Position numbers and translations under genes: made by a program. The notes beneath the pieces were generated by a model. The model saw nothing but the letters and a program-made list of their open reading frames with translations. It was not told the origin of the DNA and did no database searches. From positions 87,032 to 151,031 of the forward strand of contig CAZBPC010000001.1 in the NCBI GenBank assembly GCA_964493715.1: a DNA stretch of 64,000 nucleotides, in the 5' to 3' direction. Of the stretch, positions 1 to 33,425 are shown piece after piece. The stretch comes from an uncultured archaeon (lineage in GTDB: Archaea; Asgardarchaeota; Lokiarchaeia; Sigyniarchaeales; SOKP01). How positions within the stretch are numbered: position 1 is the stretch's first letter; every line of letters begins with the position of its first letter.

Positions 1-2057
1 AATTAGCGCGGGAAGCTGCAAAAAATAAATTAATAACAGGATATCGGTTAGAACTTTGTCGCAGAACCTTGAAGAAAAATATTGGAAAAGAAATATGTCC
101 CGAATGTTTCCTTGAATTATTGAAAAGAGCTCATATTACGAATTTTTCTACAGTTATGGAGTCATTTAATATTCCCGCAAAACAACTAATTAAATTGATT
201 AACCAATACATTAATGAAGAAAGAATTTATGGAATTATTGAACAGAAAACTCAGATGTTTTATTATATTTCGGAAGAGATTCGAGAACAAGTTTTATCCA
301 AAATCCAAGATGACGGAAAGATTAATATTAAAGATTTAGGACTTATGTTAGACATGAATTCTGATATTGTAATGAAGGTTATCTATAAAATTATTAATCA
401 ATATCAGATCAGGGGCTCTTTTTCAGAAGATAAAAGCTTTTATTATACCCAGAAATATATATTGGATAATTTAATAAAAGAAATAAAAGAAAAAGGGAGA
501 ATCTCACTATCAGACCTTGCTAAGTTGTTTGGAATTCCAAAGGAATTAACCAAATCATTTTGCGTAAATATAATGAGGACTGGGGCTATCAATTCTTTTT
601 TTGCCGCAAGAGGAAATGAAATTATCACTGCTGGACAGATTTATACTGAAATTAAGGCTTTTTCAAAAGAAGAGGGATTATTTGAATTATCCAAATTAGC
701 TGAGAAGCTAAAAATTGCTGTCGAATTAGCCAGAAAGAGCTTACATGAATTGATAAAATCAGGATCAATAAAAGGGATCTTTACACAAAGAAGGGAGTTC
801 ATGACCAGAAGATATCTTGAAGGAAAAATAAAAGAACTCGCAAGAGCATATAGAACGATGCCTTTGAGAGAATTATCAAACAGATTGGGCGTAACTGAAT
901 CAAGCATTGAAGAGAATTTAGCTCAATTAATCGGTAGAGGAGATATAGATGGCTATATTGACTTACATCAACGATTATTTGTTGCTTATAGTGTTCCTAG
1001 AACTAGTGGTGGTGAAGCAACCCCTAAAAAACAAGAAGATATTGAACCAATAGATGAAGGTAAGATTGAAGTCGTAAGAGATTATGATTTTGAGGGGGGT
1101 CAAGTTCACATGAAAGTAGCAATTCGCAATAAAAGTAACATGGCGATTAACAATGTCAAAGTAATATTAGACGCTCCTTCTAGCTTCAAAATGAAACAAC
1201 CTCTATTTAGCATACCTGTTATAGAAAGTAAGTCAAGTAGAGGTGTTGATTTTTATCTAGAACCTAAAACATGTGGATCCTCAAACGTTGGGGGTACTGT
1301 AATATATAAAGATGCGACTGGTAAAAAACATACTATTAATATTAAAAAAAAAGAAGTTCAAATCAAATGTCCATTAGTTTGCACGAATTTATCTAACATT
1401 GAAGATTGTCAGGTAGCAATACAAACACTTCCAAATGATGCTCGTGCGTTTTTAATCGCCGATCTAGATCCTCGATTAACTTTTAGAGCTGCGATAAGAA
1501 CTTTAAAACATTTTGAAACTAGCACAGTAACCTCTCATGAGGGTAATGATACTGCTGGTAAATACGAGGCTGAAGCATGGTTCTGTGCAGAGGCTAAAAT
1601 AACAGGTGGCCGAATTATTACACGCGTCTACGTTTCAGAAAGTAGTCAATCTCTTGAAGTCCGTGTATGGTGTGGAAATGCTGGACAATTAACAGGATTT
1701 TTAGCGAGAATAATTGAACTCCTGTTTGAAGAGATTAACATAATCAGAAAAATCAAAAGTGAAGAGAGAGAGAAGACAATTGATGTTATGGCAATAACTC
1801 AAAATTTAGCAGAAATAAGTGATTATTGTATGTTACGTTGGAAAGCACAGAATATAAGAAATAAATTACACGACACTTTCGTCCGTTTACGTAAATTATT
1901 AGGAGACAACGAGGCAATTCTTGGTAGAATTGAATTTTGGCTTACTCAGTTAAATAAGTATGGAAAAGATGATAAAATCAGCGATGATGACGCAGATCGA
2001 TTAGTACAAGATGTGGAGAAATTCAGAGGGGTCATCGCTCGGTCAATAAAATTATAA
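1..2057 (+). CDS. Hypothetical protein with about five tandem winged-helix (PCI-WH-like) repeats followed by a beta-rich and a helical C-terminal domain; 5' end probably lies upstream of the window
   Basis: The listed ORF 69..2057 starts at a TTG, but the same frame stays open back to nt 3 (LAREAAKNKLITGYRLELCRRTLKKNIGKEICPECF; Cys pairs suggest a zinc ribbon). Repeated about 55-aa units, e.g. ISLSDLAKLFGIPKELTKSFCVNIMRTGAINSFF, FELSKLAEKLKIAVELARKSLHELIKSGSIKGIF, MPLRELSNRLGVTESSIEENLAQLIGRGDIDGYID. Confidence 0.55.
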   Translation, partial: LAREAAKNKLITGYRLELCRRTLKKNIGKEICPECFLELLKRAHITNFSTVMESFNIPAKQLIKLINQYINEERIYGIIEQKTQMFYYISEEIREQVLSKIQDDGKINIKDLGLMLDMNSDIVMKVIYKIINQYQIRGSFSEDKSFYYTQKYILDNLIKEIKEKGRISLSDLAKLFGIPKELTKSFCVNIMRTGAINSFFAARGNEIITAGQIYTEIKAFSKEEGLFELSKLAEKLKIAVELARKSLHELIKSGSIKGIFTQRREFMTRRYLEGKIKELARAYRTMPLRELSNRLGVTESSIEENLAQLIGRGDIDGYIDLHQRLFVAYSVPRTSGGEATPKKQEDIEPIDEGKIEVVRDYDFEGGQVHMKVAIRNKSNMAINNVKVILDAPSSFKMKQPLFSIPVIESKSSRGVDFYLEPKTCGSSNVGGTVIYKDATGKKHTINIKKKEVQIKCPLVCTNLSNIEDCQVAIQTLPNDARAFLIADLDPRLTFRAAIRTLKHFETSTVTSHEGNDTAGKYEAEAWFCAEAKITGGRIITRVYVSESSQSLEVRVWCGNAGQLTGFLARIIELLFEEINIIRKIKSEEREKTIDVMAITQNLAEISDYCMLRWKAQNIRNKLHDTFVRLRKLLGDNEAILGRIEFWLTQLNKYGKDDKISDDDADRLVQDVEKFRGVIARSIKL

Positions 2058-8963: not shown

Positions 8964-10874
8964 CTATTTTAATAGAATAGTCTCTAAATTTTTAGGCGCC
9001 TTTGTTGTTTTCCTCAATTTTCTGTGAATCATCGTAGCCAAGCTAATCACTTTTGTCTCTTCTCCATGATTACAAATTATCATCTTAGGTCTCGGTGCTA
9101 TTCTTCGTAAGAATTGAGAAATCTGACTTCGAGATGAATGACCACTAAATCCTTCAAGAGTGAATACGTTTAGATTTAATTTCACTAATTGAGTTCTACC
9201 TCTAGGATCAATATATTGAAATTCTCGAAAGCCCCGTATGATTCGACTTCCTAATGTTCCAGAAACTTGGTATGACACGAAGACTAGACTATTATTTTTA
9301 TCCTCTGCTAGTGCTCTCAAGTACTGAACTGAAGGACCTCCAATCAACATTCCACTCGTGGCTAAAATAATACATGGTCCTCCTTGTATTACATCTTGGC
9401 GTTCTTCTGGTGAAGAGACAGTTGTAAAGAAATCACTCATAAAAGGATTTTTTCCTTGATGAAGTATTTTCTCTCTTAAATCCAAGCTAAGGTAATCGGG
9501 ATGGGCAGTGTGTATTGCAGTGGCTTCAGAAATAAGACCATCCAAGAAAATTGGTACGCGGTCAATTATACCTTTTGAAATTAATTCCTCTAAGACAATA
9601 ATCAGTTCTTGTGCTCTTCCAACTGCTAATACAGGTATGAGTACTTTGCCACCCCTTCGAATTGTGGAAGTAAGAACCTGTTTCAAATCTCGTTCAGAAT
9701 CTTGGCGACTAGGAATTCGATCTTGAGGACCTCCATATGTTGATTCAATCAATAAACTCTCTACACGAGGGAATTTTACTGCTGCTTTCTCAAGTAAACG
9801 GGTTTTCTGGTATTTAAAATCACCAGTATAAACAAAGTTATATCCTCCTTTTCCAAAGTGTAAATGTATCATGGATGAGCCGAGTATGTGTCCGGAATTA
9901 TGAAGGGTTAACTTTACATCAGGAGCAATATCAGTAACTTTTCCCCAAGCTAATGGAATGGTATGTAGAACTGTCATTTTTACATCTCTTTTTGAATAGG
10001 GTGGGACAGTTCCTTCTTTTTCTGCAATTTGCACAAAATCTAACTGAAGCATAGTAGAAAGGTTTCTGGTGGGAAGAGTAGAATAGACTGGTCCTCGATA
10101 TCCATATTTAAATAAAAATGGAACCATTCCACAATGATCCAAATGAGCATGAGATATAACGACAGCATCCAAATCCCGAACTGAAAATTCTGGGACATCA
10201 AAACCGGGAAATCTATCATTTTTATTTCCAACGTTTAACCCTACATCAAGAAGAATATTACTATCCCTTGTTTGCATTAGTATGCAAGATCTTCCTACTT
10301 CTCTAAATCCTCCTAAAGCTGTCATTCTGATAGCTAAATCCTTAAAAAGAGGGGGCCTGTGGATTCGTTTTCCAATGTCTAATAGTATTTCTTTTTGGTG
10401 TTGACGCTCTTTTTTCAACATCTGTCTTATTAATTGTATTGTTATAGACGAAAGAGGAGGTGTTCGAATTGTTTTAGGTTGCCAAAATGTATTTGACCGA
10501 ATTTCTTTAAGATTCATCCCTTTTTTACCAATTACTATCCCGGGTTTTCCTGCTTCAATTATAACTTCTCCACGTGTATGATCAAACTCGATGCTAGTAA
10601 TTTCGGCCTCTTCACCAACAAGATTGCGAATATATACTTCAGTTTCATCTGGGTCTTTCCGTTTTTCAACATTCCAACGAAATACTACCCTTTTTCTCAT
10701 TGATCTTGCTAAATCTTTAAGAATTTCGGAATTTTCAATTCCTTCCACATCTGCATTTTCGGAATAAACAGCAATTTCTGGACCCTCAAATTCGATTTTT
10801 TTCACGACAATATCAGAAGGGAGGATTTGAATAATTTCCTCTCTAATTCTTTGTAATTCGCCTTCAAAACTCAT
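8964..10874 (-). CDS. aCPSF1 (archaeal beta-CASP ribonuclease with N-terminal KH domains)
   Basis: KH GxxG (VIGKKGMNLKEIR), metallo-beta-lactamase motif VISHAHLDHCG, and a beta-CASP region of about 636 aa with the canonical architecture. Confidence 0.95.
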   Translation of the reverse strand: MSFEGELQRIREEIIQILPSDIVVKKIEFEGPEIAVYSENADVEGIENSEILKDLARSMRKRVVFRWNVEKRKDPDETEVYIRNLVGEEAEITSIEFDHTRGEVIIEAGKPGIVIGKKGMNLKEIRSNTFWQPKTIRTPPLSSITIQLIRQMLKKERQHQKEILLDIGKRIHRPPLFKDLAIRMTALGGFREVGRSCILMQTRDSNILLDVGLNVGNKNDRFPGFDVPEFSVRDLDAVVISHAHLDHCGMVPFLFKYGYRGPVYSTLPTRNLSTMLQLDFVQIAEKEGTVPPYSKRDVKMTVLHTIPLAWGKVTDIAPDVKLTLHNSGHILGSSMIHLHFGKGGYNFVYTGDFKYQKTRLLEKAAVKFPRVESLLIESTYGGPQDRIPSRQDSERDLKQVLTSTIRRGGKVLIPVLAVGRAQELIIVLEELISKGIIDRVPIFLDGLISEATAIHTAHPDYLSLDLREKILHQGKNPFMSDFFTTVSSPEERQDVIQGGPCIILATSGMLIGGPSVQYLRALAEDKNNSLVFVSYQVSGTLGSRIIRGFREFQYIDPRGRTQLVKLNLNVFTLEGFSGHSSRSQISQFLRRIAPRPKMIICNHGEETKVISLATMIHRKLRKTTKAPKNLETILLK

Positions 10875-11201: not shown

Positions 11202-11837
11202 ATGCCAGAAGTTAAGATTGGCGCAATCGCATCTGGTTCAGGTACAAATCTAGAGGCAATAATTGAATCATGTGAAAACGGAATTTTAAGGAAAAAAGCC
11301 TCAGTAGAGGTTTTAATCTGCAATAAACAAGGAGCTTACTGCATGGAAAGAGCAAAAAATCACAAGATACCTTATTATTTAATAGAATCAGATAAAAATC
11401 TTGATATTTCTCGCGAAGAATTTGATCAACTAATGATTAATGTACTCAAGGAACATGAATGTGAATTAATTGCATTAGTTGGATACATGAGATTAGTAAG
11501 CCAAAAATTCATCAATGCCTTCAATGGTAATGTCATGAACATTCATCCTGCATTATTACCTGCATTTAAAGGTCTTCACGGTCAACGTGATGCACTTAAT
11601 TATGGCGTAAAAGTTTCTGGATGCACTGTTCACTTTATAGATGCAAGTACAGATCACGGTCCAATAATAATCCAAAAATGCGTGCCAGTATATGCAACAG
11701 ACACCGAAGAATCTTTGGCTTTAAGAATTTTGGAATGGGAACATAAAATCTTCCCAAAAGCCATAGAATTATATTGTGAGAAGCGCCTTCATGTAATTAA
11801 TAGGATTGTGCATATAGACGGAGAGATTAAATATTAA
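11202..11837 (+). CDS. purN: Phosphoribosylglycinamide formyltransferase
   Basis: IASGSGTNLEAII, NIHPALLPAFKGLHG and GCTVHFIDASTDHGPIIIQ. Confidence 0.9.
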   Translation: MPEVKIGAIASGSGTNLEAIIESCENGILRKKASVEVLICNKQGAYCMERAKNHKIPYYLIESDKNLDISREEFDQLMINVLKEHECELIALVGYMRLVSQKFINAFNGNVMNIHPALLPAFKGLHGQRDALNYGVKVSGCTVHFIDASTDHGPIIIQKCVPVYATDTEESLALRILEWEHKIFPKAIELYCEKRLHVINRIVHIDGEIKY

Positions 11838-11948: not shown

Positions 11949-12041
11949 TCCTATTACACTCAAATAAAACCTAAAATTTTAATCAAATCAATCATGGTTT
12001 AATTATATATTATTAATAATCAACAAGAAAATGAAGAAAGG

Positions 12042-14231
12042 ATGCCTCATCGAAAGGAAATTTCTGAGATTCTAAAAATGATGAAAAAACCTCGCAATAT
12101 ACGTAATATCGGGTTTGTGGGTCATATAGATCATGGAAAGACAACATTAAGCGATTCACTTTTGAGTGAAGCAGGTTTATTATCACCCGATTTAGCAGGA
12201 GAAGCACGAGCTTTAGACTATTTAGAAGAAGAACAAAGGCGCGGAATTACCATGAAATCTACTAATATATCTCTATATTATGAAAAATCTCTTAAGGGTC
12301 ACGACCCATTCTTAATAAATCTTGTTGATACTCCAGGTCACTTAGATTTTAGTGGAAAAGTAACACGTGCTTTAAGGTTAATAGATGGAGTTGTTGTAGT
12401 TGTCGATGCTGTTGAGGAAATAATTAGCCAATCTGAGACGGTTATTAAACAAGCGCTGCAGGAAGGCGTAAAACCAGTTCTTTATATAAATAAAGTAGAT
12501 CGCCTTATCCGAGAATTAAAACTAACAGATGAACAAATAAGAAAAAAATATACAAGGATTATAAATGACTTTAATACGCTTATTGAAAGATTTGCAGATA
12601 AACCTTTCAAAAAAGAGTGGCAAGTATCTCCTGCTGATGGAAACGTCGCATTTGGCTCTGCACTCCACAAATGGGGTTTTACTTTAAATATTTTAGAAAA
12701 TAACGAGTTAAAGTTTTCGAATATTAGATCACGATATCAAAAAGAAACATATACTAAAGAAACTTATGCTGATTTAGCTGTGCATTTTCCAATACACAAC
12801 GCAATACTAGAAATGGTTGTAGATCACCTCCCTAACCCTATTGATGCTCAGAAATACAGAATCGGTAAGATTTGGAATGGAGATTTGACATCTGAAATTG
12901 GAAAATCCATGATAAATTGCGATCTAAATGGTCCTTTAATAATATGTTTGAGTAAAGTACAAGCAGATAAGCACACTTTGATCGCGACGGGGAGAATCTT
13001 TTCCGGAAATTGTATCAATAAAGAGGAAGTATTTTTATTAAGAGAAAATAATTTTGACACAATCCGAAAAACTGCAATTTTTATGGGTCAAAGAAGAGAA
13101 CAAGTTGAAGAAATACCTGTTGGAAACATCGTGGCTATAGAAGGATTAAAACATGTCAAAAGCGGAGAAACCATAATTAATAAGAATTATATTGATAAAA
13201 TGATTCCATTTGAAAATGTGAAATATGTTTCCACACCCGTTGTTACTGTCTCTATCGAACCAGATTATTTAAGAGATTTAGATAAGATGAAGGAACTCAT
13301 CGAAAACATGCTAATCGAAGATCCTAATTTGTTATTTGAAGTAAACGAGGAAAATGGTGAATTTCTCCTCTCTGGTATGGGTCCCTTACACCTTGAAGTT
13401 ACCGCAAATGAACTTGAAAAACGAGGCATTCAGGTTTCAACATCCGAACCAAGAGCCGTTTTTAAAGAATCAATCAGGCATAAATCCTCTATTGTTTCAG
13501 TAGAATCATCCATCAATAAAAATTCTCTTAAACTTAAAACTGAAAGATTAGATGATAAAACTTCTAGGTTTTTTCAGACTCACGATATTAAGGCTATCAA
13601 GCCAAAAACAAAATTGAAAGAATTATTGGAAGAATTTACAGACTTAACAACAGATGAAATCCAAAACTTTTGGATGTATTATGATAATAACAATATTTTA
13701 ATTTACAATTTAGGAGAAAATTTAAATCAATCTTATAAAGAATCTATTGTAGAAATTATTGGTAAAATTCTTTTATATGGACCTTTATGTGGAGAAAAAT
13801 TAACGGGTCTAAAAATTATAATTGAAGAACTCATCATCAATAAATTTGATGAAGAAAACGCGTTTAATGAATTATCCGCAATGTTTTATAATGCTATTAA
13901 AGATGCTTTAAACGAATCTGAACTTATCCTACTTGAACCAATTTACCATACAATTATTCAATTGCACCCAGATTATATAAAAAATACGCTTTCATTGCTT
14001 TCTAAATATTCCGCAAAAATAAAAGAAGTAAACCAAGAAAAGGATTATCAAGGAATTATAGAAATTTTGCTCCCAGTAAGGAATTCTATTAAATTTGCTG
14101 AAGATATTCGGTCTTCAACATCCGGAAAAGCATTCTGGCAGAATGAGTTTTATGCGTTTATGGAGGTTCCTAATCACGAAGCTAAGCAAATTATAAATGA
14201 CCTGCGCTTCATGAAAGGTATTTCGTGGTAA
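12042..14231 (+). CDS. Elongation factor 2 family GTPase, divergent paralog lacking the diphthamide-site histidine
   Basis: G motifs GHIDHGKTT, DTPGHLDF and NKVDR with the EF-2 domain order. The domain IV tip reads ELIINKFDEENAFNELSAMFYNAI where canonical aEF-2 has H-E-D-x-x-H-R-G. Confidence 0.85.
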   Translation: MPHRKEISEILKMMKKPRNIRNIGFVGHIDHGKTTLSDSLLSEAGLLSPDLAGEARALDYLEEEQRRGITMKSTNISLYYEKSLKGHDPFLINLVDTPGHLDFSGKVTRALRLIDGVVVVVDAVEEIISQSETVIKQALQEGVKPVLYINKVDRLIRELKLTDEQIRKKYTRIINDFNTLIERFADKPFKKEWQVSPADGNVAFGSALHKWGFTLNILENNELKFSNIRSRYQKETYTKETYADLAVHFPIHNAILEMVVDHLPNPIDAQKYRIGKIWNGDLTSEIGKSMINCDLNGPLIICLSKVQADKHTLIATGRIFSGNCINKEEVFLLRENNFDTIRKTAIFMGQRREQVEEIPVGNIVAIEGLKHVKSGETIINKNYIDKMIPFENVKYVSTPVVTVSIEPDYLRDLDKMKELIENMLIEDPNLLFEVNEENGEFLLSGMGPLHLEVTANELEKRGIQVSTSEPRAVFKESIRHKSSIVSVESSINKNSLKLKTERLDDKTSRFFQTHDIKAIKPKTKLKELLEEFTDLTTDEIQNFWMYYDNNNILIYNLGENLNQSYKESIVEIIGKILLYGPLCGEKLTGLKIIIEELIINKFDEENAFNELSAMFYNAIKDALNESELILLEPIYHTIIQLHPDYIKNTLSLLSKYSAKIKEVNQEKDYQGIIEILLPVRNSIKFAEDIRSSTSGKAFWQNEFYAFMEVPNHEAKQIINDLRFMKGISW

Positions 14232-14287
14232 GAATTGACGTAAGCAGAACAATTTACTATTAATACATTTGTTTGGGATTCAGGCTA

Positions 14288-14358
14288 TGCGCCTGCCGGG
14301 GATCGAACCCGGGACGCTAACTTGGGAAGCTAGCATATTACCACTATACTACAAGCGC
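14288..14358 (-). tRNA. tRNA-Gly (anticodon CCC)
   Basis: Reverse complement GCGCTTG-TA-GTAT-AGTGGTA-ATAT-G-CTAGC-TTCCCAA-GTTAG-CGTC-CCGGG-TTCGATC-CCCGG-CAGGCGC-A folds into a 71-nt cloverleaf. Confidence 0.9.
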
Positions 14359-14402
14359 AAAAATTGAAGTCTAATGTTAATAAATGAGAAATTCTAAATA
14401 AA

Positions 14403-14879
14403 TTTTTTTTATATCAAAAACATAACCTCTCCTCTGAAATTATTAAGGAATGTGTCGAGGAAATGATGTATTTGGCTGGAGATCGGGAAGTTGAGATAAT
14501 ATTAAATCCTTTAGATAATGCAGAATGTTAAATTGATAGATTGAGAATTGAACAAGTGTTAACTAATCTTTTATCTAACGCAATTAAAAATACTCCATCA
14601 ATGGGCTTTGTGGAGGTAATTTTGAGCACGCAAGGAGAACATATTTATATTTCAGTAGAGGATACCGGAATAGGATTGACGAAGGAGGAAATGGATAAGT
14701 TATTTAATAAATTTGGGAAGATTGAAAGATGTGGTAAAAAATTAAATGTTGATATTGAGGGTTCAGGATTAGGTTTATTCATAACTAAAGAAATCATTGA
14801 TTTACATAAAGGTAGCATCTGCGTTGAATCAGAGGGGAAAGACAAAGGTTCAAAATTCACGATTAAACTAAATAAATGA
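14403..14879 (+). pseudogene. Histidine kinase remnant (HATPase_c domain only, in-frame stop, no HisKA or sensor region)
   Basis: The frame reads ...SSEIIKECVEEMMYLAGDREVEIILNPLDNAEC*IDRLRIEQVLTNLLSNAIKNT...EDTGIGL...GSGLGLFITKEII with TAA at 14529-14531. N, G1 and G2 boxes are present. There is no H-box upstream, and the frame closes within about 130 nt of the tRNA. Confidence 0.7.
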
Positions 14880-17120: not shown

Positions 17121-18014
17121 TTATATTTGTTTAATATAATCCAAAAGATAATTTGAAAGAATTTTTTCAGCATTTTTTATTCCTTGAAAACCTGGAAAGT
17201 CATTTAAATCAATAAGATAATATCTATCTTTGTCTATGGGTTTAATTAGATCAAATCCAAATATTTTTAGGTCAAGCTCTTTTGATAAAATATCTGCGAG
17301 CACCCTCATTTCTTCTGAAACTTTAAATTCTTCCCTATCAATAGCATCAACATCAATACTAGTGGGTTTCTCTCTCATATAAAGATATATAGGATTTTCT
17401 CGTTTAATCCCAAATACTTTATCACCAATTACATATACTTTCCTGTCTATAGCATCACATTCAATAAATTTTTGAATATAGACGTCATAATAGATTAAAT
17501 GATTATATCGTTTATGAAAATCATCAAAATCCTCCGGCTTTTTTGCTAAGAAATTAAAGCGATTATATTTGTCATGTTGGGAATGACTTTTAATTACAAT
17601 AGGAACTTTAGTAGAGCCCCATTTTTTAAATCGATCTAATTTTTTTGCACTTTGATTCCAAGATTGAACTAATGAAAATCCCTTTAATTTGGATTTATAT
17701 TGGGAAAATATTCTCCTTAAAGCATAGTCAAGAGCTATTTTATTCTTACATGTTGATACAGTTTGAATGTCATGCAAACATTTTATACCATTTATTCTTG
17801 CAAAATGAAGTAAATCCACTGAACAATCATTTCTGACTTTTACTATGAACAAATCGGCTTCTTTATATGCTTTAGGCATTCTCGAAAGATTAAAAAATTG
17901 TTTTGTTGGGTCGTGAAAGGTAAAATCCACTTCTTTCTTGGTTTTCAATATGTCTATAACCTGTTTAATTACTTCATGGTTTTGCCTTGCGGAAAATACT
18001 ACCTTTTTATTCAT
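17121..18014 (-). CDS. ATP-grasp kinase, ITPK1-like (inositol tris/tetrakisphosphate kinase family)
   Basis: YIQKFIECDAIDRKVYVIGDKVFGIKR and LDLKIFGFDLIKPIDKDRYYLIDLNDFPGFQGI align by eye with human ITPK1 VQNFINHNAVLYKVFVVGE and LGVSLFGIDIIINNQTGQHAVIDINAFPGYEGV. Confidence 0.7.
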   Translation of the reverse strand: MNKKVVFSARQNHEVIKQVIDILKTKKEVDFTFHDPTKQFFNLSRMPKAYKEADLFIVKVRNDCSVDLLHFARINGIKCLHDIQTVSTCKNKIALDYALRRIFSQYKSKLKGFSLVQSWNQSAKKLDRFKKWGSTKVPIVIKSHSQHDKYNRFNFLAKKPEDFDDFHKRYNHLIYYDVYIQKFIECDAIDRKVYVIGDKVFGIKRENPIYLYMREKPTSIDVDAIDREEFKVSEEMRVLADILSKELDLKIFGFDLIKPIDKDRYYLIDLNDFPGFQGIKNAEKILSNYLLDYIKQI

Positions 18015-18128: not shown

Positions 18129-19460
18129 ATGAAAATAAGAAAAAAAAGAGAAAAAAAAGAAAAAACATTTAGCGGGTTTCTGTTAAGACAAGTGCTCTTA
18201 ATTGGAATGCTTTTTATGGGAGATTATCTATTCTTCTTTTTTGAACAAAATTATTTTAATACATACCTAGATCATGTTCTTTACCTCCAGCCACTATATA
18301 TATCGATTATGGTTTCATTATCTGCCACTGTTGGTGCTATTAGTATGCCACTATGGGGGATTATAAGTGATAATTCACGCACAAAATTCGGGCGACGTAG
18401 ACCTTTTTTACTATTTGGGATAATAGCTGGTATTGGCATGATTTTATACAGCTTTGCATATCCTTTATTTGGGAAAACGGAAACAGCTTTTATGTGGTGC
18501 CTAATCATAGATGTTGTAGTTATTGGAATTTCTTCTAACGCCTATCTAGTTGCGGAGAGGGCTTTAATCCCCGACACAATTGAGGTTGAAAAAAGAGGTA
18601 GAGCAAATGGATTAATTAATTCTATAAGTTACATTGGTTTATTGATTGGAGTTGCATTTTTATTGCTGGGGAATGAATTATTTGGAATTCCAGATCCTCG
18701 AGATACTGTTCCTCCAATTGGTACAATTATTACACAAGATGGACATTTCATTCTTCTCTCATTTGGAGGAAGTGTTTTTTTTATTGTTTCTATTGTTGGA
18801 TTTTTCTTCATTAAGGAAAAACACGTTACAGATCTTCCTGTAAAAAAGAAATTTTTCTCGGAATTGAAGGATATATTTAACATAAATGAAGTGAGAAAAG
18901 TAAAGGAATTTTACAAGATCCTCATAGCATTCGTTGTATTTCAATCCGGTATATCCTCAGTAATGCCATATCTTTTTATCTTTATTTTTGCTCAAGGGCT
19001 TAGTACAATGGAATTGCTACTAGGAATAGCTATAGCATTTCCAATCGTTTTCATTGCAACAATATACTTAGGTAAAATTGCAGATAAACATGGAAGAAAG
19101 AAGTATGTACCTTTATCCTTAATAATTGTCAGTATTGGATTCTTTATAATGCCATTTGCGGGAATACTTGCCAGCAAGATCTTATTCATGATTTGCCTAC
19201 CATTTGTTTTAGTTGGAGTATTAGCAATAGTTACACCTCTTAATGCATGGGCTCAAGATTTACTTCCCGAAGAAAAACGTGGAAAATTTACAGGTATCTT
19301 TAACATTGTTAACACACTTTCTCAAATCATCGGTTCGTTTGCAGGGGGGCTCATCTTTATGATATTTGGTCTTTCTTGGATATTCATCGCTGCACCAGTA
19401 TTTTTCTTCCTTTCAATTCCGTTATTCTTAAAGGTAAAAGAAACAGTTAAAAAAGAATAA
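18129..19460 (+). CDS. MFS transporter (GPH/MFS_2-like cation symporter)
   Basis: About 12 TM segments and the signature SDNSRTKFGRRRPFLLFG after TM2. Confidence 0.8.
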   Translation: MKIRKKREKKEKTFSGFLLRQVLLIGMLFMGDYLFFFFEQNYFNTYLDHVLYLQPLYISIMVSLSATVGAISMPLWGIISDNSRTKFGRRRPFLLFGIIAGIGMILYSFAYPLFGKTETAFMWCLIIDVVVIGISSNAYLVAERALIPDTIEVEKRGRANGLINSISYIGLLIGVAFLLLGNELFGIPDPRDTVPPIGTIITQDGHFILLSFGGSVFFIVSIVGFFFIKEKHVTDLPVKKKFFSELKDIFNINEVRKVKEFYKILIAFVVFQSGISSVMPYLFIFIFAQGLSTMELLLGIAIAFPIVFIATIYLGKIADKHGRKKYVPLSLIIVSIGFFIMPFAGILASKILFMICLPFVLVGVLAIVTPLNAWAQDLLPEEKRGKFTGIFNIVNTLSQIIGSFAGGLIFMIFGLSWIFIAAPVFFFLSIPLFLKVKETVKKE

Positions 19461-19617: not shown

Positions 19618-20709
19618 ATGGCGAATACAATCAAAACAGCTTTAATCGGTATCGGTGATGTTGCAAGCGCTTTAGTACAAGGAATAGAAAATTACAAGAA
19701 AAATCCCGATAAAATCATAGGATTGTTACCTGAAATTAAACAGTATGTAGTGAGTGATATTGAATTTGTTTTAGGTATAGATGTAAACGCTAATAAAGTA
19801 GGGCATGATCTAAGTGAAGCAATATTTTGTGAACCAAATTGCAATCTTGAATTTTATAAACCAAATTTTTTGAATGCACCTATAATTAAGGGCCCCGTTC
19901 TGGATGGGTTAAACAGCAATATAAAAAAAATAATTCCTTTAGATGATAATCAAGTGTTTTCAGATATCGTGCATGAATTAAAAGAAAGGAACGTAGACGT
20001 TGTAGTGATTCTCCTTCCAACAGGGTGTCACGAAGCTGTCAAATATTATGCTAACGCCGCTTTAGAAGCAAATGCTTGTATTATCAATGGCATGCCCTCT
20101 TATGTCGCTAAAGATCCACAGATAGTAGCCAAATCGGAAAAATTGAAACGTTCAATCATTGGAGATGATGTAAAATCTCAAATTGGAGCTACCATCATAC
20201 ACCGTTCATTAGCAAACCTTTTTCCCATGCGTGGAGCAATACTTGATAAAACAATTCAATTAGATTGGGGTGGTTCTTCGGATTTCTGCAATTTACTTAC
20301 TCCAAAACCAGATGGTCAATTAATATATGAAGAAGGAAAACGACAATCAAAAACTGAGTCAGTTATTTCTAGACTACCAAATAGAGATGAGATAGAATGT
20401 CAAATTTCAGCAGTAGATTACATTCCTTTTTTAAAGAATCAAAAGGAAGCATATATGAGATTAGAAGGGAGAATTTTTGGAGGTGCTCCTGTCAGGATTG
20501 ATATTACAATGTTTGTAGAGGATGGAAATAATTCGGCTGGAATAATTGCTGACTGTATTAGAGTTTCAAAAATAGCGAAAGATCGACAAGTAGGTGGTGT
20601 TTTACAATCTGCTTGTTCCTTTTTTAACAAACATCCCCCAGAGCAATTAGAGGATCAGGAAGCTAAGAAAAGATTAATTGAATTTTTACAAGGTGAGAGA
20701 GAAAGATAA
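19618..20709 (+). CDS. ino1: myo-Inositol-3-phosphate synthase (short prokaryotic Ino1 type)
   Basis: N-terminal Rossmann segment ALIGIGDVASALVQG. IGDDVKSQIGATIIHRSLANLFPMRGAILDKTIQLDWGG closely resembles the actinobacterial/archaeal Ino1 core (GDD.KSQ.GAT..HR.L..LF..RG). Confidence 0.9.
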   Translation: MANTIKTALIGIGDVASALVQGIENYKKNPDKIIGLLPEIKQYVVSDIEFVLGIDVNANKVGHDLSEAIFCEPNCNLEFYKPNFLNAPIIKGPVLDGLNSNIKKIIPLDDNQVFSDIVHELKERNVDVVVILLPTGCHEAVKYYANAALEANACIINGMPSYVAKDPQIVAKSEKLKRSIIGDDVKSQIGATIIHRSLANLFPMRGAILDKTIQLDWGGSSDFCNLLTPKPDGQLIYEEGKRQSKTESVISRLPNRDEIECQISAVDYIPFLKNQKEAYMRLEGRIFGGAPVRIDITMFVEDGNNSAGIIADCIRVSKIAKDRQVGGVLQSACSFFNKHPPEQLEDQEAKKRLIEFLQGERER

Positions 20710-20724
20710 CCTAATTCTCTTCTA

Positions 20725-21639
20725 TTATTGACTTTTAACTTTTATTGTTCCCTTAATAAACTGTTCTCTCAATGTAATTATATTGTAAATATGATCTGCT
20801 ATCAAACTAACACTTTCAGGAATGCTTCGAAAACTGGGGAAATCATTAATATCAACAATAAACGGACCATCCTTGGTATTTATAAAATCAACCCCATAAA
20901 TTGTCATGCCTAATTTACGCCCAATTCTTATAAAATTCCTTTTCAAGTTTTCATCAATCGAAGTTCTTATATGCACGAGTTCTAATGGAGATAAATTATC
21001 ATCCTGCTGCAATCGATTATGTGAGGTAATTGAAACTATCCATTGTCCTATTACGTATGCTTTATTCACAATATCATAGGCTCCGAGATATTCTTGCAAA
21101 AACAATTCACTCTCATCATGATTATTTATCAAAGCTGCGAGATCTTCTTTAGTCTTAGCTATTCCTATAATTCGTTCATTTTTAGGTAAATTCGGAATAT
21201 TATGAGCGTCTAATTTGATAATAATTGCGTTTCCATTTTTTAATGTATGATTTGCTTTTTGGATTGTATTGTATGTCTTTGGAATGTTAACTTTCTTACA
21301 ATTTTCTGCAATAAATTGAAATGTTGCATTCCTGCTTTCGCAAATTTTAACTGAATCCAATGAATTTAGAATGGGTAGATTGGGGGATACTTGTTTTATG
21401 GTATCATAGACAAGTTTATTTTCTATTTGAGTTGTAAGTTTCACGATTAAAAAAACAATGGGATACTTTTTCAAGCGTTTCTCAAAATATTTCGGATTAA
21501 AAGAATTCAATCCCGTTTTCATAAAATCGATCAGAGCAATATTATAGTTTTTGATTAAAAATGATTTGATATTTGCTAAGACCTCAATATCTCGATTGCA
21601 AATGGCCCCTATGTACACTTTTTTTAAATTATTTGCCAT
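20725..21639 (-). CDS. ATP-grasp kinase, ITPK1-like paralog
   Basis: LQEYLGAYDIVNKAYVIGQWIV and LGMTIYGVDFINTKDGPFIVDINDFPSFRSIPE, the same C-terminal signature as 17121..18014. Confidence 0.65.
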   Translation of the reverse strand: MANNLKKVYIGAICNRDIEVLANIKSFLIKNYNIALIDFMKTGLNSFNPKYFEKRLKKYPIVFLIVKLTTQIENKLVYDTIKQVSPNLPILNSLDSVKICESRNATFQFIAENCKKVNIPKTYNTIQKANHTLKNGNAIIIKLDAHNIPNLPKNERIIGIAKTKEDLAALINNHDESELFLQEYLGAYDIVNKAYVIGQWIVSITSHNRLQQDDNLSPLELVHIRTSIDENLKRNFIRIGRKLGMTIYGVDFINTKDGPFIVDINDFPSFRSIPESVSLIADHIYNIITLREQFIKGTIKVKSQ

Positions 21640-25947: not shown

Positions 25948-26679
25948 TTAGGTCTCAAATGTCAACCAGCTAATTATATTTTGAAGAAACTTCAAATTAT
26001 CTCCCGCATCAATCCCGAAATCAGAGTCTTCAAGTAAGAATTCAGAAGAACCAACTGTCACGCATCTTCCTGAAAAAAAGTCAGATACAGCACAAACAGG
26101 TACTGGTCCGATTACCCCGATCTCTCCATCTTCAGAATACTTAAATTCTGCTTTTTCAGAAGTCACAATGATATCCTCCACGTCTTCTTCAGAGATAGTA
26201 AAAAAAGTGCAGTTTGGTAGAACTACTTCAGTTATTCCACTGGTTATGGGATGATTATAAAGTTCATTAGCTATTATATTACTTCGATTTACTAAGAAAT
26301 GTGAACCAGATTCCTGAATAGCGCCATTCCAAAACCGTCTTACTCCTGTCATTTTATATAAGACTCGAATTGACCCCTTTTTCATGGGAATGTCCATGTC
26401 TCCACCTTCGCCACTTGTTAATAAAAGTGCTCCACCTTCTCCTACGTACTTTTTTATTGCTAGTAACTCATCTTGAGTGAATTTATCTGCTTTTCCCTCG
26501 GGAGTGTGTTGAACGTTTCCAATGAATAAGAGATCATAATCCTCAAGAGTTTCAAAATCAATAGGTCCTTCATTCTTATCTATATAATCGATATCATAAT
26601 CTTCCTCACCTAACGCGAACTCTGGCCACTCTTCCACTCGTTCTCGATGTGAAAGGTCGATTAAAATACTATCACTCAT
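25948..26679 (-). CDS. Hypothetical acidic protein (possibly glutamine-amidotransferase-like / DUF4350-like fold)
   Basis: DYDLLFIGNV...LLAIKKYVGEGGALLLTSGEGG ... GDNLKFLQNIISWL resembles the layout of GldG/DUF4350-type proteins. The match is weak. Confidence 0.3.
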   Translation of the reverse strand: MSDSILIDLSHRERVEEWPEFALGEEDYDIDYIDKNEGPIDFETLEDYDLLFIGNVQHTPEGKADKFTQDELLAIKKYVGEGGALLLTSGEGGDMDIPMKKGSIRVLYKMTGVRRFWNGAIQESGSHFLVNRSNIIANELYNHPITSGITEVVLPNCTFFTISEEDVEDIIVTSEKAEFKYSEDGEIGVIGPVPVCAVSDFFSGRCVTVGSSEFLLEDSDFGIDAGDNLKFLQNIISWLTFET

Positions 26680-26892: not shown

Positions 26893-27576
26893 TTATTCAC
26901 TTATAGGAATGAATATTCTTTCCGCTGGACCATCCTTTTTGATGATAGCGATATCTATTCCATTTCCAGACGCCATATCTCTAATAATTGACGATGATAT
27001 AGCTTTAATAATGATTTCTTTCCCTTCTTCAATAGTTAAATCATCTTTATATTTTGCTTCTAACACTCCATATGAAAAGTTCTGCCCAGAACCCACAGCA
27101 ACAAATTTATCGGGTAAAATGGATCCATAAGCGCCGATATCTAAAAGTACGGGTCCTTCTTCTTCAGTAACTCCGCCTAATATGAGTCCAACTTGATAGG
27201 GGTACATCTTGTTCTTATATAAGATATTCGATAAAATTTTACCCGCGCTTTTAACCTTAATTCTACTCTCTTTTTTGAGTTGATATAGCGTTGTTTCAGC
27301 TCGCAATACATCAATCAAGTACTGAGCATCAGCTACCCCCCCTGCTATGGTCATGTAGATATGTTCTTGGATTTTATGCAGTTTTTCGGAAGTTTTACTA
27401 GCTACAAAATAAGACATTGTAGCTCTTTTATCCGTACCTAAAATTACTGCATCCTTACATACCAATCCAACAGTAGTTGTCCCCGTTTTAAATGACTGTG
27501 ATTGAGGATTTGATTTTTCCAATCTCTCTTGAACTAATGAAGATTGAGAGGGTTCGATTAAATCTTCCTTTCTCAT
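26893..27576 (-). CDS. psmB: Proteasome subunit beta
   Basis: A propeptide followed by the active-site TTTVGLVCKDAVILGTDKRAT, with the Ntn-hydrolase pattern throughout. Confidence 0.95.
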   Translation of the reverse strand: MRKEDLIEPSQSSLVQERLEKSNPQSQSFKTGTTTVGLVCKDAVILGTDKRATMSYFVASKTSEKLHKIQEHIYMTIAGGVADAQYLIDVLRAETTLYQLKKESRIKVKSAGKILSNILYKNKMYPYQVGLILGGVTEEEGPVLLDIGAYGSILPDKFVAVGSGQNFSYGVLEAKYKDDLTIEEGKEIIIKAISSSIIRDMASGNGIDIAIIKKDGPAERIFIPISE

Positions 27577-27703: not shown

Positions 27704-28861
27704 TTATTTTACTCTTTTTTGGACAACTACATGCTCACGGAGCGGTTTTGCGTGAGGAAATATCGTTTGCACAGCTTGTTCGTTATTTGCCCAGATTGTG
27801 GTGCCTTCAATGAAGGAGATTCCAGCAGCGACGACTATTGGTTTTCCCATGTTGTGAATGGAAGAGAACATTCCTTTACCTGCATGTTGTTTCGCAATCA
27901 TTACAGTGTCCACATTGCAATGCGTTAATGTTTCTCCAAGCCAAAGTTGGTACAAATTTGGAAGTGTCATTATTAGACCAGCAATCTTATCTGTTTCTTT
28001 TTCAAAAGCGACATGCACCCACGTCACCACTTTTTCTAGATCACAAGAATTATACGCTTCAAGGAATTCTGGAACATGAGTAATATTTCGAGGATCGATG
28101 AGTAATTCATAATATCCTGGAGGTATTTGAGCATAGTGATACATCATCTCATCAAACCGAGACGATCCTCCCGGGGCGTCAGCTAAAATGGAATAAAATG
28201 AGTTTGCAGCGAGATCCAAAATTTCCTCCTTGCGACTAATTAATTCTTCAAGCATGAGATAACCCAAGCGATATTCAGGTCCAACAATATCCCCTTTTTC
28301 CCACGGTTTATCAATAACGTGAACGCAACTATATTTCGATTCTGATTCGTATCCTAGTTCATTGAGAAATTCCAAAATTCGGGATTCTGGATGGTTAAAA
28401 TTCACGCCATTCAGCATTGGGGCATCAAACCCTTCAGTTTGTATTCCTATTCCCCCTACTAATTTAGGATAATTAATCGGACCGCGCAACCTTCGAAGTT
28501 TATGTTCCTTGGCAAACATTTCACACTGTTCCATGAGCACGGCACAAGTTTCTAAGTCATCAGCTAATAACCATCCGAAAGTGGTTGCCTTTCTAGAATA
28601 TGATCGATAATCGGGATCGATTTGGCAGATAACGAAACCGGTGGGAATGTGCTCTTTTAATACGATGAACATGCTCGCACTATTTTCCGGAGAATCGAAT
28701 TTTTCTTCATAATAATCTAAGATTTCCTGTATTATCCTTGGCTTTAATCGTTCATCGGGCACGTATAAAAGTAATTCTAAAGCTTGGTGAGCGAGTGAAA
28801 ACAGTTGAAAAGTGTTGATTTCTAACACGCCAATATTTTGAGCTAAAATTATCATGTACAA
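27704..28861 (-). CDS. Hypothetical protein, GNAT-like acyltransferase fold suspected
   Basis: The segment FGWLLADD...MFAKEHKLRRLRGPINYP...GFDAPMLNGVNFNHPESRILEFLNELGYE resembles a family of two-domain GNAT-like proteins. Judged by eye only. Confidence 0.35.
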   Translation of the reverse strand: MYMIILAQNIGVLEINTFQLFSLAHQALELLLYVPDERLKPRIIQEILDYYEEKFDSPENSASMFIVLKEHIPTGFVICQIDPDYRSYSRKATTFGWLLADDLETCAVLMEQCEMFAKEHKLRRLRGPINYPKLVGGIGIQTEGFDAPMLNGVNFNHPESRILEFLNELGYESESKYSCVHVIDKPWEKGDIVGPEYRLGYLMLEELISRKEEILDLAANSFYSILADAPGGSSRFDEMMYHYAQIPPGYYELLIDPRNITHVPEFLEAYNSCDLEKVVTWVHVAFEKETDKIAGLIMTLPNLYQLWLGETLTHCNVDTVMIAKQHAGKGMFSSIHNMGKPIVVAAGISFIEGTTIWANNEQAVQTIFPHAKPLREHVVVQKRVK

Positions 28862-28898
28862 TCATATGCATGGATCTATTTAAACAAAAAAAATTGAT

Positions 28899-29840
28899 TT
28901 AATAAATAAGACTATTCCTTGTTGTCTTTTTCATTAGAAAAGCAAGTAAGACGGCAAAAAGTAAAATTCCAATTGATATCGCTTGTATTTCAATCGGCAT
29001 GTAGAGAGAATTTCCTGGAGGAGGATCGTTACTTATTGGTGGATCAGAGTTATCTAGCGTGACAACAACAATGAGATTCAAGCATGTTTCTAAGTTATCG
29101 ATTAAAACCTGAATTTTATGAATACCTGGATTAATGGTTTGAAAATGAAATGTTAGGAACAATTCATTCAAAGCTTGATCTTGATAAATGATAAAATGAT
29201 TATCGACGGGATCGTCAATAAACATGTTTATAGCGGCTAAACTGTTAACTAGTGGAGTGATTAAGGCAATATTAATTGTATAGGAAAAGTTAGGATTAAG
29301 TGAAACGGAGACCTCACGTAACGATTCGCTTTGTGAGAAGCAAAAGCCATTCAAGGCAATTATTTCATCATCTTGATCAAAGAGATCCATAAAATTTACT
29401 GTTCTTTCAATTTTCAAGTGAAGATTCAAAGTGAACTGAGTAATAGCATCCATTGTAATATTATAAGCCCCTTCAGTAACCATGCCAAGCTGAATCTCTT
29501 TAGGTTGTTGATCTACCGTTCCTTGAAAAAGGTTGTAATGATTTCCACTTGGATCAGTCAATGTCATGTTTATCTCACATTGATGAGGAGTCACGACTTC
29601 AAGAGAGAAATCATACATCCAATCCTTTTCAAAAAGTAAATCTTGAAGGAAAATCTGATCATTTGGGCTAAATACAGTATGAGTAGAATCCCAAATTAAC
29701 TCTTTACTTGAAGTATTCAGATTTAAATTTTTATTTAAAACGGATTGGAATTGAATCTGACTCATTACCAATAATATTATGATACTGCTTATCAAGATAT
29801 ATTCCAAATGAATCTTCCTAATGCCGTGATATTTTTTCAT
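28899..29840 (-). CDS. Membrane-anchored extracellular protein, paralog of 60667..61710
   Basis: Signal anchor at the N-terminus and a C-terminal TM plus basic tail (ISIGILLFAVLLAFLMKKTTRN). Shares VTPHxC...DP... and HLKIE blocks with the 347-aa protein. Confidence 0.5.
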   Translation of the reverse strand: MKKYHGIRKIHLEYILISSIIILLVMSQIQFQSVLNKNLNLNTSSKELIWDSTHTVFSPNDQIFLQDLLFEKDWMYDFSLEVVTPHQCEINMTLTDPSGNHYNLFQGTVDQQPKEIQLGMVTEGAYNITMDAITQFTLNLHLKIERTVNFMDLFDQDDEIIALNGFCFSQSESLREVSVSLNPNFSYTINIALITPLVNSLAAINMFIDDPVDNHFIIYQDQALNELFLTFHFQTINPGIHKIQVLIDNLETCLNLIVVVTLDNSDPPISNDPPPGNSLYMPIEIQAISIGILLFAVLLAFLMKKTTRNSLIY

Positions 29841-30262
29841 ATGTTTCCCCTAATTTTTCCAATGTAAGTGAAAAAATGAGATTAAGCATAAGCTAATTAA
29901 ATGGGTATAAATTTTAGCTTACTCCAAATTCCATTCGCTCTGAATTGCATGTTGTGTAAAACAGTCGCCGATAAAAAAGATCTAGACTGCCCTAATTTAA
30001 TAATGTCTTTACACCCAAATTGTACAATAAAACAATTGTTTATAAAAAAAAATAGAATGAATTATAATTCTAAGTTCTCTTCCTTAGGAAGATCAAGTTT
30101 TTTTATTACTTCTTCTATTTATATCATGCTAACGTTTTCATGATTCGCAATTTCTTGAATAGTCCTCCCTTTATCGAAATATTGCATTTTTAATCATTCT
30201 TTATCCTTATAGTGTGCTTTTTTTCTTCAAAAGTAATTTTATTTTTTAATATAAAAAGTAGT

Positions 30263-33378: not shown

Positions 33379-33425
33379 TTTTTCTGCTAGTCCCTTAAGA
33401 ATATCTATTGAATTTATGTTCGTTG

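Follow-up and report, generated by a model that had tools for sequence, protein, structure and literature searches.

For a long time, translation in archaea and eukaryotes was assumed to rely universally on a single-copy EF-2 and on diphthamide. Within the 64,000-nt stretch of an uncultured lokiarchaeal genome analyzed here (henceforth, the window), an open reading frame encodes a 729-aa EF-2-family GTPase with an unusual domain IV tip, which raises the questions of what kind of EF-2 this protein is and what it may do on the ribosome. The gene and the domains of its product are laid out as follows, with aEF-2p being the published paralog class to which we assign it below:

12042..14231, + strand: aEF-2p gene, an open reading frame of 729 aa plus stop codon; EF-2-family translational GTPase paralog
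12042..12851, + strand: G domain, aa 1-270 (PF00009, E=1.6e-49; boundaries approximate, from Pfam and AF2)
12852..13211, + strand: domain II, aa ~271-390 (PF03144 and PF22042 matches at aa 304-379)
13212..13451, + strand: domain III, aa ~391-470 (PF14492, EFG_III, aa 396-468)
13452..13925, + strand: domain IV, aa ~471-628, fold kept and sequence diverged (AF2 secondary structure, pLDDT ~80-93)
13926..14228, + strand: domain V, aa ~629-729 (PF00679, EFG_C, aa 630-716)

Pfam searches recovered GTP_EFTU, domain 2, EFG_III and EFG_C, arranged as in EF-2. The best NCBIfam match of the protein was aEF-2 (TIGR00490) with 635 bits, which falls under the equivalog cutoff of 738.45 bits; for comparison, a standard aEF-2 (P0130) reached 969 bits and canonical Loki aEF-2 613-624 bits. 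Among solved structures, aEF-2 matched at 36-40% identity (E=7e-170, 570 bits), and residues 8-726 paired with residues 2-718 of the 729-aa Sulfolobus aEF-2 (8hl1), indicating full-length collinearity. The AF2 model (pLDDT 81.7) resembled aEF-2 6u45 with a TM score of 0.78. Pfam EFG_IV (PF03764) did not match the window protein, whereas it does match canonical Asgard aEF-2. An earlier note on this DNA had described a 729-aa GTPase with an intact G domain and the EF-2 domain order, in agreement with the reading frame, the Pfam matches and the G1-G5 motifs. The Lys/Asn-rich insertion that it placed around aa 480-560, in contrast, does not exist: this stretch is collinear with aEF-2 (two window-only columns and five columns absent from the window protein in an alignment to six standard aEF-2 sequences), and its Lys plus Asn content of 22%, against 15.5% for the whole protein, amounts to a mild enrichment in a genome of 32% GC.

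All five GTPase motifs were read in the translation, and none of their residues varied when 50 sequences, paralogs as well as canonical copies, were aligned:

12120-12143, + strand: G1, GHIDHGKT, aa 27-34
12240-12251, + strand: G2, RGIT, aa 67-70
12327-12341, + strand: G3, DTPGH, aa 96-100, including the catalytic His100
12489-12500, + strand: G4, NKVD, aa 150-153
12654-12662, + strand: G5, GSA, aa 205-207

The tip of domain IV is where the protein departs from this pattern, at two loops:

13824..13871, + strand: EELIINKFDEENAFNE, aa 595-610, corresponding to the diphthamide loop, with Glu605 in the place of the diphthamide His
13509..13526, + strand: SINKNS, aa 490-495, corresponding by alignment to the second decoding loop of 8hl1 (SPNKHN there)

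The canonical diphthamide loop has the form HxDxxHRGxxQ, and the window protein is without its diphthamide His. When HMMER aligned the protein to Sulfolobus aEF-2 (8hl1), EELIINKFDEENAFNE matched HDAVVHEDPAHRGPAQ column for column, with the diphthamide His facing E605. A histidine that is present but displaced, the case that the earlier note had named against its own reading, was looked for as well; aa 515-635 are entirely devoid of His, so the residue has not merely shifted. Across the family, all 113/113 paralogs have E, D, S, P or Q in this column, whereas canonical Asgard aEF-2 has H in 94/94 sequences. Loss of the acceptor histidine, as the note had claimed, is thus real and conserved rather than a chance event. 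In the second loop, both His and the Pro of SPHKHN are gone, and the Lys column varies among orthologs (Q in 23, K in 12 and R in 6 of 49). Within the Loki-type clade, the replaced diphthamide loop carries a conserved acidic motif, (D/N)EENAF(T/S)ELS, of which E604, E605, A607, F608, E610, L611 and S612 are each kept in 38-48 of 49 species-level orthologs; aa 600-610 carry a net charge of −3.55 in the paralogs versus −0.83 in standard aEF-2. This motif is limited to the Loki-type subclade. Other aEF-2p subclades have different tips, which suggests that tip chemistry may not be the functional determinant.

The closest relatives of the window protein are Lokiarchaeota/Promethearchaeota proteins, comprising hundreds of orthologs at 74-95% identity (the nearest database protein is 95% identical), with full-length orthologs in about 50 species-level genomes and hundreds of metagenome clusters. 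A neighbor-joining tree placed it inside a clade of 15 His-less Asgard EF-2s (95% support), its companions being named as Hel-, Odin- and Heimdallarchaeota, and apart from the canonical Asgard, standard archaeal and eEF2-like sequences; built on 717 columns with 60 bootstraps, this tree is crude and agrees with the published maximum-likelihood tree (PMC6143161). Both kinds of EF-2 co-occur in single genomes: Loki_b31 holds a paralog 87% identical to the window protein (L004, NJBI01000011.1) and a canonical copy (P0286, NJBI01000006.1) on different contigs, and Loki_b32 likewise holds a paralog (L035) and a canonical copy (P0362). By tblastn, no second EF-2 was found in the 64-kb window or in the 10 kb on either side of 52 related loci, and no diphthamide-synthesis Pfam family was found among the 57 window ORFs scanned, the window being a small fraction of the genome. 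Judging from its relatives and the literature, the source organism probably encodes a canonical aEF-2 and lacks dph.

Indeed, these features match aEF-2p, introduced by Narrowe et al. (2018, Genome Biol Evol) as an EF-2 paralog found in Asgard archaea and Korarchaeota that lack dph and judged likely to be a GTPase but not a translocase (PMC6143161). The published proteins have the same five-domain EF-2 fold with G1-G5 kept, have lost HxDxxHRG including H701, do not keep SPHKHN and come from the same setting, as Lokiarchaeota-type genomes also carry a modified canonical aEF-2 (H-T-S/Q) (PMC6143161). The diphthamide genes are missing from Lokiarchaeota (PMC6143161) and from all Asgards except Hodarchaeales (PMC10307638). 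The window protein shows no essential difference from this class, its sequence being a new allele. Hence, the earlier note was right to place it in a class of non-canonical EF-2 paralogs already described in Asgard archaea, as borne out by the orthologs, the neighbor-joining clade, the co-occurrence in Loki_b31 and the match to published aEF-2p; with the class known since 2018, the find is correct but not new. We consider it very probable that the window gene is an aEF-2p, that is, a ribosome-associated GTPase other than the translocase.

The gene is under purifying selection, domain IV included, with dN/dS values of 0.08-0.11 over the whole gene and 0.17-0.24 in domain IV. The latter is nonetheless the least conserved and fastest-evolving part of aEF-2p: pairwise identity among paralogs is 0.58 there versus 0.74-0.85 in the other domains, domain IV of the 750-aa canonical Asgard aEF-2 is more conserved (0.73), and the paralog domain IV is only 18% identical to that of standard aEF-2. 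What this adds to the published account of aEF-2p is that the replaced loop of the Loki-type proteins is not unconserved, but has the (D/N)EENAF(T/S)ELS motif, in a domain IV with a dN/dS of ~0.2. The notion that the remainder of the protein is divergent too holds only in part. Its G domain and domain III are nearer to standard aEF-2 than are those of the canonical Asgard copy (47% vs 40% identity for the G domain and 41% vs 31% for domain III), and its TIGR00490 score, given above, is no worse than that of canonical Loki aEF-2.

Compared with canonical archaeal EF-2 (Sulfolobus 8hl1, Pyrococcus 5h7j, Methanoperedens 6u45), the window protein is alike in length, domain order and GTPase motifs, but has Glu for the diphthamide His, and its two decoding loops are without their Arg, Gly, Pro and His. 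The canonical aEF-2 of Asgard archaea (750 aa; e.g., P0286) belongs to the same superfamily, occurs in the same organisms, also scores below the TIGR00490 cutoff and often carries only "GTP-binding protein" as its annotation. However, it is only 33% identical to the window protein, lies at another genomic locus and has a HEDPRHT(Q/S) loop with both His kept in 94/94 sequences. As a separate observation, both Asgard EF-2 copies are equally distant from standard aEF-2.

The gene may be transcribed from a promoter of its own, as a separate transcription unit is suggested by the 204-bp gap that follows purN:

11998..12041, + strand: putative promoter and leader, by sequence only, with a TATA-like A/T-rich box, TTTAATTATATATT (11998-12011), and GAAAGG (12036-12041) just ahead of the ATG

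In Loki-like loci, purN (encoding GAR formyltransferase) lies directly upstream in 47/52 cases and FttA/aCPSF1 is found in 42/52. The adjacency to purN is confined to the Loki-like clade, being absent at the aEF-2p loci of Odinarchaeum (with ERCC4 and ThiF as neighbors) and Helarchaeota. We considered it as a functional link reminiscent of the PurH-aEF2 complex and rejected it in favor of lineage synteny, because the neighbor is purN rather than purH and Odin- and Helarchaeota do not share this arrangement. The gene neighborhood thus gives no functional clue; no aIF6 or SBDS gene was found in it either.

Eukaryotes offer a parallel in EFL1/Ria1 and Snu114, where an EF-2 duplicate has likewise retained the scaffold of the GTPase, given up the diphthamide loop and taken on a job other than translocation. 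Their origin, however, is independent of that of aEF-2p: in the published tree, eEF2/Ria1/Snu114 are sister to the canonical aEF-2 of Heimdall-LC3 (Hodarchaeales) and not to aEF-2p (PMC6143161). The collinear 729-aa window protein lacks both the large insertion of EFL1 (~1100 aa) and the acidic N-terminal extension of Snu114 (~970 aa); it matched EFL1 (5anb_K) and Snu114 with 242 and 211 bits, versus 570 bits for aEF-2. No EFL1 structure was among the best 50 fold matches of the AF2 model, and the Snu114 fold matches reflect the shared EF-2 scaffold only. Specific kinship with either protein was rejected on these scores and the published phylogeny (PMC6143161), so that the parallel drawn in the earlier note stands as an analogy only. 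Among bacterial EF-G paralogs (Tet(M)/Tet(O), EF-G2, LepA, BipA), too, non-translocase function accompanies a domain IV tip that has diverged or is missing, an analogy also made by Narrowe et al. (PMC6143161), although these proteins are distant (131-239 bits against NCBIfam cutoffs of 534-1000) and belong to a different domain of life.

Most likely, then, aEF-2p is a GTPase that depends on the ribosome but does not act in translocation. As the second EF-2-family GTPase of dph-lacking Asgard archaea, beside the translocase aEF-2, it would, when bound to GTP, dock via domains G, II, III and V where translation factors bind the ribosome (sarcin-ricin loop and P-stalk) and hydrolyze GTP there, as other translational GTPases do. 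Its domain IV tip is acidic and without the His, Arg and Lys side chains that contact the codon-anticodon duplex, and we infer that such a tip leaves aEF-2p unable to drive normal forward tRNA-mRNA translocation. This step would fall to the canonical aEF-2 of 750 aa, whose gene would lie elsewhere in the genome, and GTP hydrolysis by aEF-2p would power another ribosome transaction. We would look for the latter preferably in a large-subunit or idle-ribosome task, such as eviction of aIF6 or subunit parking and hibernation, which aEF-2 itself probably performs in single-copy archaea; the other main candidate would be back-translocation or a fidelity compensation for the missing diphthamide. Confidence in any single cellular role is much lower than in the class assignment.

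The preferred task is a special case of this non-translocating GTPase. It would make aEF-2p a specialist akin to EFL1 that has taken over an ancestral moonlighting role of aEF-2, binding the GTPase center of the 50S subunit and evicting aIF6, possibly together with aSBDS, or licensing or parking large subunits. Precedents come from Sulfolobus, where aEF-2 GTPase activity frees aIF6 from 50S (PMC8024482), and from Methanosarcina, where aEF2 with PurH dimerizes idle 50S (PMC12605026); the aEF2 on such dimers (PDB 9ou7) is among both the sequence and the fold matches of the window protein. Non-translocase jobs of EF-2 are thus known in archaea (PMC8024482, PMC12605026) and could be taken over by a duplicate, and eukaryotes met the same problem by EF-2 duplication, giving rise to EFL1. 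Such jobs need no decoding-center loops, in keeping with conserved domains G, III and V and a rewritten domain IV tip. Against this, neither sequence (242 vs 570 bits) nor fold (best 50 matches) betrays any special affinity to EFL1, the EFL1-type insertion is absent, the neighborhood is devoid of an aIF6 or SBDS gene, and a 50S-only job predicts that domain IV would decay, which a dN/dS of only ~0.2 for this domain speaks against. We therefore regard this role as a tentative possibility. Somewhat more doubtful still is its fullest version, in which the Loki-type aEF-2p would be no relaxed relic but a dedicated large-subunit or idle-ribosome GTPase, an independent archaeal analog of EFL1 or of eEF2-type hibernation factors, whose acidic tip touches a basic protein partner (aIF6, aSBDS or a hibernation factor) rather than decoding-center RNA.

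A constrained and folded domain IV would be expected if aEF-2p still entered the A site, as an elongation helper on the translating 70S ribosome might: a back-translocase, or a factor for fidelity or frameshift control, supplying what diphthamide does elsewhere. By compensating for diphthamide, it would account for the co-occurrence of the paralog with dph loss and with R702T/E660K in canonical aEF-2. Indeed, aEF-2p presence, dph absence and altered canonical loops correlate phyletically (PMC6143161), and our alignments reproduce the HEDPRHT(Q/S) loop of canonical Asgard aEF-2 together with Arg or Lys at the E660 position. However, dph-lacking Geoarchaea and K. cryptophilum have no paralog (PMC6143161), which argues that it is not required for life without diphthamide; moreover, an acidic tip with a net charge of about −3.5 would fit poorly beside the RNA backbones of the decoding center, and tip sequences vary between aEF-2p subclades. 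On balance, such a helper seems rather unlikely. That aEF-2p still translocates, slowly or under particular conditions like some bacterial EF-G2 paralogs, is conceivable given its complete architecture and GTPase site, a domain IV that is constrained and keeps its fold, and sequences outside domain IV that resemble standard aEF-2 no less than the canonical Asgard copy does. Yet neither decoding-center loop is retained, the invariant His being gone along with the Pro and His of SPHKHN, domain IV has little identity to standard aEF-2, and it is the 750-aa aEF-2 of the same genomes whose H..H loop is 100% conserved and whose domain IV is the better conserved of the two, making this an improbable explanation. 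Finally, the rapid evolution of domain IV might be taken as a sign of a decaying duplicate or an assembly artifact without function; the intact 729-aa frame, the breadth of full-length orthologs, a dN/dS of ~0.1 and invariant catalytic motifs effectively refute this.

The paralogs, together with the loss of dph in most Asgard archaea, break the rule of a single EF-2 with diphthamide. Thus, aEF-2p bears on translation in the closest relatives of eukaryotes, on EF-2 and Dph as markers for phylogeny and genome completeness, and on how duplicates of EF-2 come to serve other purposes, for which EFL1 and Snu114 are the eukaryotic examples. The window contributes one more clean example, along with quantitative details (purifying selection on domain IV, the acidic replacement motif and the equal distance of both Asgard copies), and raises no new question of its own. 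If the large-subunit or idle-ribosome reading were true, the division of labor among EF-2 proteins seen in eukaryotes would have arisen convergently in their closest archaeal relatives.

The ORF under study gives Pfam matches in EF-2 order, namely GTP_EFTU (E=1.6e-49), domain 2, EFG_III and EFG_C, and retains all GTPase motifs (G1 GHIDHGKT, G2 RGIT, G3 DTPGH, G4 NKVD, G5 GSA), bearing out the intact G domain and EF-2 domain arrangement described in the earlier note. GC content is ~32% across the whole window.

12042..14231 (+), aEF-2p gene, ORF of 729 aa
13824-13871 (+), diphthamide-loop counterpart, translating to EELIINKFDEENAFNE (aa 595-610)

The G1-G5 motifs did not vary in a 50-sequence alignment of paralogs and canonical Asgard EF-2s, and EFG_IV was not matched in the Pfam scan of the window protein. 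The top NCBIfam model was aEF-2 TIGR00490, matched over its full length with 635 bits (613-624 for the canonical Asgard copy); both copies fall under the 738-bit equivalog cutoff and are therefore frequently annotated as 'GTP-binding protein'. Archaeal EF-2s are the closest solved structures (Sulfolobus 8hl1, E=7e-170, next Pyrococcus 5h7j); lower down come eEF2 at ~325-355 bits, EFL1 at 242 and Snu114 at 211.

HMMER aligns EELIINKFDEENAFNE position by position with HDAVVHEDPAHRGPAQ, the diphthamide loop of Sulfolobus aEF-2, placing Glu605 at the acceptor-His column and Asn-Ala where Arg-Gly follows in Sulfolobus. The acceptor His is thus replaced by Glu605, which bears out the earlier reading of a His-less domain IV tip. 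Residues 515-635 of the window protein contain no His, which rules out a diphthamide His that is present but shifted. The second decoding loop reads SINKNS vs SPNKHN in Sulfolobus aEF-2. Among Loki-type orthologs at species level, E604, E605, A607, F608, E610, L611 and S612 are each kept in 38-48 of 49, giving the shared motif (D/N)EENAF(T/S)ELS; judged by this conservation, the replaced loop is not random within the Loki-type clade. Residues 600-610 carry a net charge of -3.55 in the paralogs vs -0.83 in standard aEF-2. Tip sequences differ in more distant aEF-2p, in agreement with the published lack of class-wide loop conservation.

Against six close orthologs, whole-gene dN/dS was 0.08-0.11 (domain IV, 0.17-0.24; other domains, 0.03-0.14), and the coding sequence clearly points to a functional gene. 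Within the paralog family, conservation is lowest in domain IV, where mean pairwise identity is 0.58 as compared to 0.73 in the similarly sampled canonical family. The AlphaFold model (mean pLDDT 81.7; domain IV blocks mostly 80-93; TM 0.78 to Methanoperedens aEF-2) predicts that the domain IV fold is kept despite this divergence. The proposal that the remaining protein is divergent as well holds for domain IV, but elsewhere aEF-2p is no more so than the canonical Asgard copy, with 47% vs 40% of G-domain residues and 41% vs 31% of domain III residues identical to standard aEF-2. Nor is there a Lys/Asn-rich insertion at residues 480-560, a region collinear with standard aEF-2 save for 2 additional and 5 absent columns, and only mildly enriched in Lys plus Asn (22% vs 15.5%).

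Hundreds of full-length 729-aa orthologs with 74-95% identity turned up when 5.8 billion proteins were searched by word index, the named ones from Lokiarchaeota/Promethearchaeota and other Asgard MAGs. Scanning one genome per GTDB species yielded 52 aEF-2p loci. Every one is in a Promethearchaeota-type MAG, and the closest are 91-94% identical to the window protein, so the window belongs to a Lokiarchaeia-type Asgard archaeon that differs from all the genomes scanned. When representatives of 50%-identity clusters were searched exhaustively with HMMER, none of the next more distant relatives (41-48% identity) had the HRG motif; those named belong to Helarchaeota, Odinarchaeum yellowstonii, Heimdallarchaeota and Promethearchaeota. 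In a simple NJ tree (717 columns), the window protein falls within a 95%-supported clade holding all His-less Asgard EF-2s, apart from canonical Asgard aEF-2, standard HRG-type aEF-2 and eukaryote-like EF-2.

The same HMMER search recovered P0170, a 750-aa protein with the loop HEDPRHTS. Used as query, it retrieved the canonical Asgard aEF-2 family, which matches Pfam EFG_IV, carries Arg at the position equivalent to E660 and HEDPRHTQ as its consensus loop, and shares only 33% identity with the window protein. The relative Loki_b31 encodes both a paralog (L004, NJBI01000011.1; 87% identity to the window protein) and a canonical copy (P0286, NJBI01000006.1), as does Loki_b32. The 64-kb window holds no second EF-2, and none of its 57 scanned ORFs matched a dph-family Pfam; from the relatives and the literature, we infer that the source organism has a canonical aEF-2 and lacks dph. 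In Loki_b31 (locus L053, 10293-11546), the canonical gene lies outside any ribosomal-protein operon, preceded by a CCA-adding enzyme gene and followed by two genes for Arf/Ras-family small GTPases, unlike the Odinarchaeum aEF-2p gene, for which the L3-L4-L23-L2 ribosomal protein genes are a few kb away.

These properties are those of aEF-2p, defined by Narrowe et al. 2018 as an EF-2 paralog of dph-lacking Asgard and some Korarchaeota that keeps G1-G5 while its diphthamide and SPHKHN loops are not conserved; the co-resident canonical aEF-2 keeps H701 with R702T and E660K/R, and in Lokiarchaeota also G703S/Q (PMC6143161). The window protein matches the sequence features of this definition, with co-residence matched in Loki_b31 and Loki_b32. 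The non-canonical Asgard paralog suspected from the sequence is therefore correctly identified, and already known. Among Asgards, only Hodarchaeales keep dph and a single EF-2 (Eme et al. 2023, PMC10307638). 'Candidatus Hodarchaeota' MAGs (DZ1B isolates; loci L015, L017, L022, L027; proteins P0293, P0304) carry a Loki-like aEF-2p (75% identity) and an H-T-Q type canonical aEF-2; given that report, their labels are probably wrong, or the name is loosely used.

Genes flanking aEF-2p
8964-10874 (-), FttA/aCPSF1, KH and beta-CASP transcription termination factor, upstream
11202-11837 (+), PurN-type formyltransferase, upstream
14287-14359 (-), tRNA-Gly(CCC), opposite strand, 55 bp beyond the aEF-2p stop codon; the window's sole tRNA
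14541-14879 (+), 112-aa ORF, TTG start, histidine-kinase HATPase_c domain alone

The gene purN adjoins aEF-2p in 47 of the 52 Loki-like loci; conservation of purN/FttA upstream is limited to this clade, and both are absent from the Odin and Hel aEF-2p loci. Having neither sensor nor DHp part, the HATPase_c ORF (homologs in only 10/52 loci) may be a truncated kinase remnant.

Other genes of the window
69-2057 (+), UFL1-like multidomain protein, 662 aa (Pfam DDRGK, E3_UFM1_ligase, PCI/winged-helix, VPS28 C-terminal)
18129-19460, MFS transporter
25948-26679 (-), IFT52 GIFT-domain protein, 243 aa; domain from an intraflagellar-transport protein
26893-27576, proteasome subunit
31639-32484, ThiF-type E1-like protein
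33426-37211, ORF of 1261 aa lacking a Pfam match
56712-57965 (+), RadA/Rad51 recombinase, 417 aa

By its domains, the 662-aa protein looks like a eukaryote-signature, UFM1-system-like protein, and 23 of the 52 loci have a homolog of it no more than 10 kb from aEF-2p; ribosomes are UFMylation targets in eukaryotes. The transporter lies within an inositol-phosphate cluster (17121-18014 (-), 19618-20709 (+), 20725-21639 (-)), in which a myo-inositol-1-phosphate synthase stands between two ATP-grasp proteins matching the ITPK1 (inositol 1,3,4-trisphosphate 5/6-kinase) domain. The proteasome and ThiF-type genes are near the IFT52-like gene, and sizeable ORFs at 27704-31495 (-) and 32515-38863 (-) had no Pfam match (besides the 1261-aa ORF, 385, 313, 410, 287, 284 and 266 aa). 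The best helix-hairpin-helix match of RadA/Rad51 is C-terminal (aa 357-407), behind the ATPase core, a domain order that would be unusual if real.

At the level of sequence, the comparisons show a GTPase that is intact and conserved, built on an EF-2 scaffold whose decoding-centre loops have been rewritten. The His/Arg/Lys tip of EF-2 domain IV touches the codon-anticodon helix. From what is established for translational GTPases, aEF-2p would be expected to hydrolyse GTP while bound at the ribosomal factor site; normal translocation would not be expected, because this tip is lost and acidic residues stand in its place. The main rival to the reading that we favour is the idea of Narrowe et al. 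that aEF-2p acts in back-translocation or diphthamide compensation (PMC6143161), and the literature searched held no later report of aEF-2p function. Gene context does not separate this idea from a large-subunit or idle-ribosome task. Non-translocase jobs are on record for single-copy archaeal aEF-2, which in Sulfolobus releases aIF6 from the 50S subunit (PMC8024482) and, with PurH, yields idle 50S dimers in Methanosarcina (PMC12605026). On this precedent, we favour the view that aEF-2p may have been subfunctionalised towards such a large-subunit or idle-ribosome task, an alternative step that we infer.
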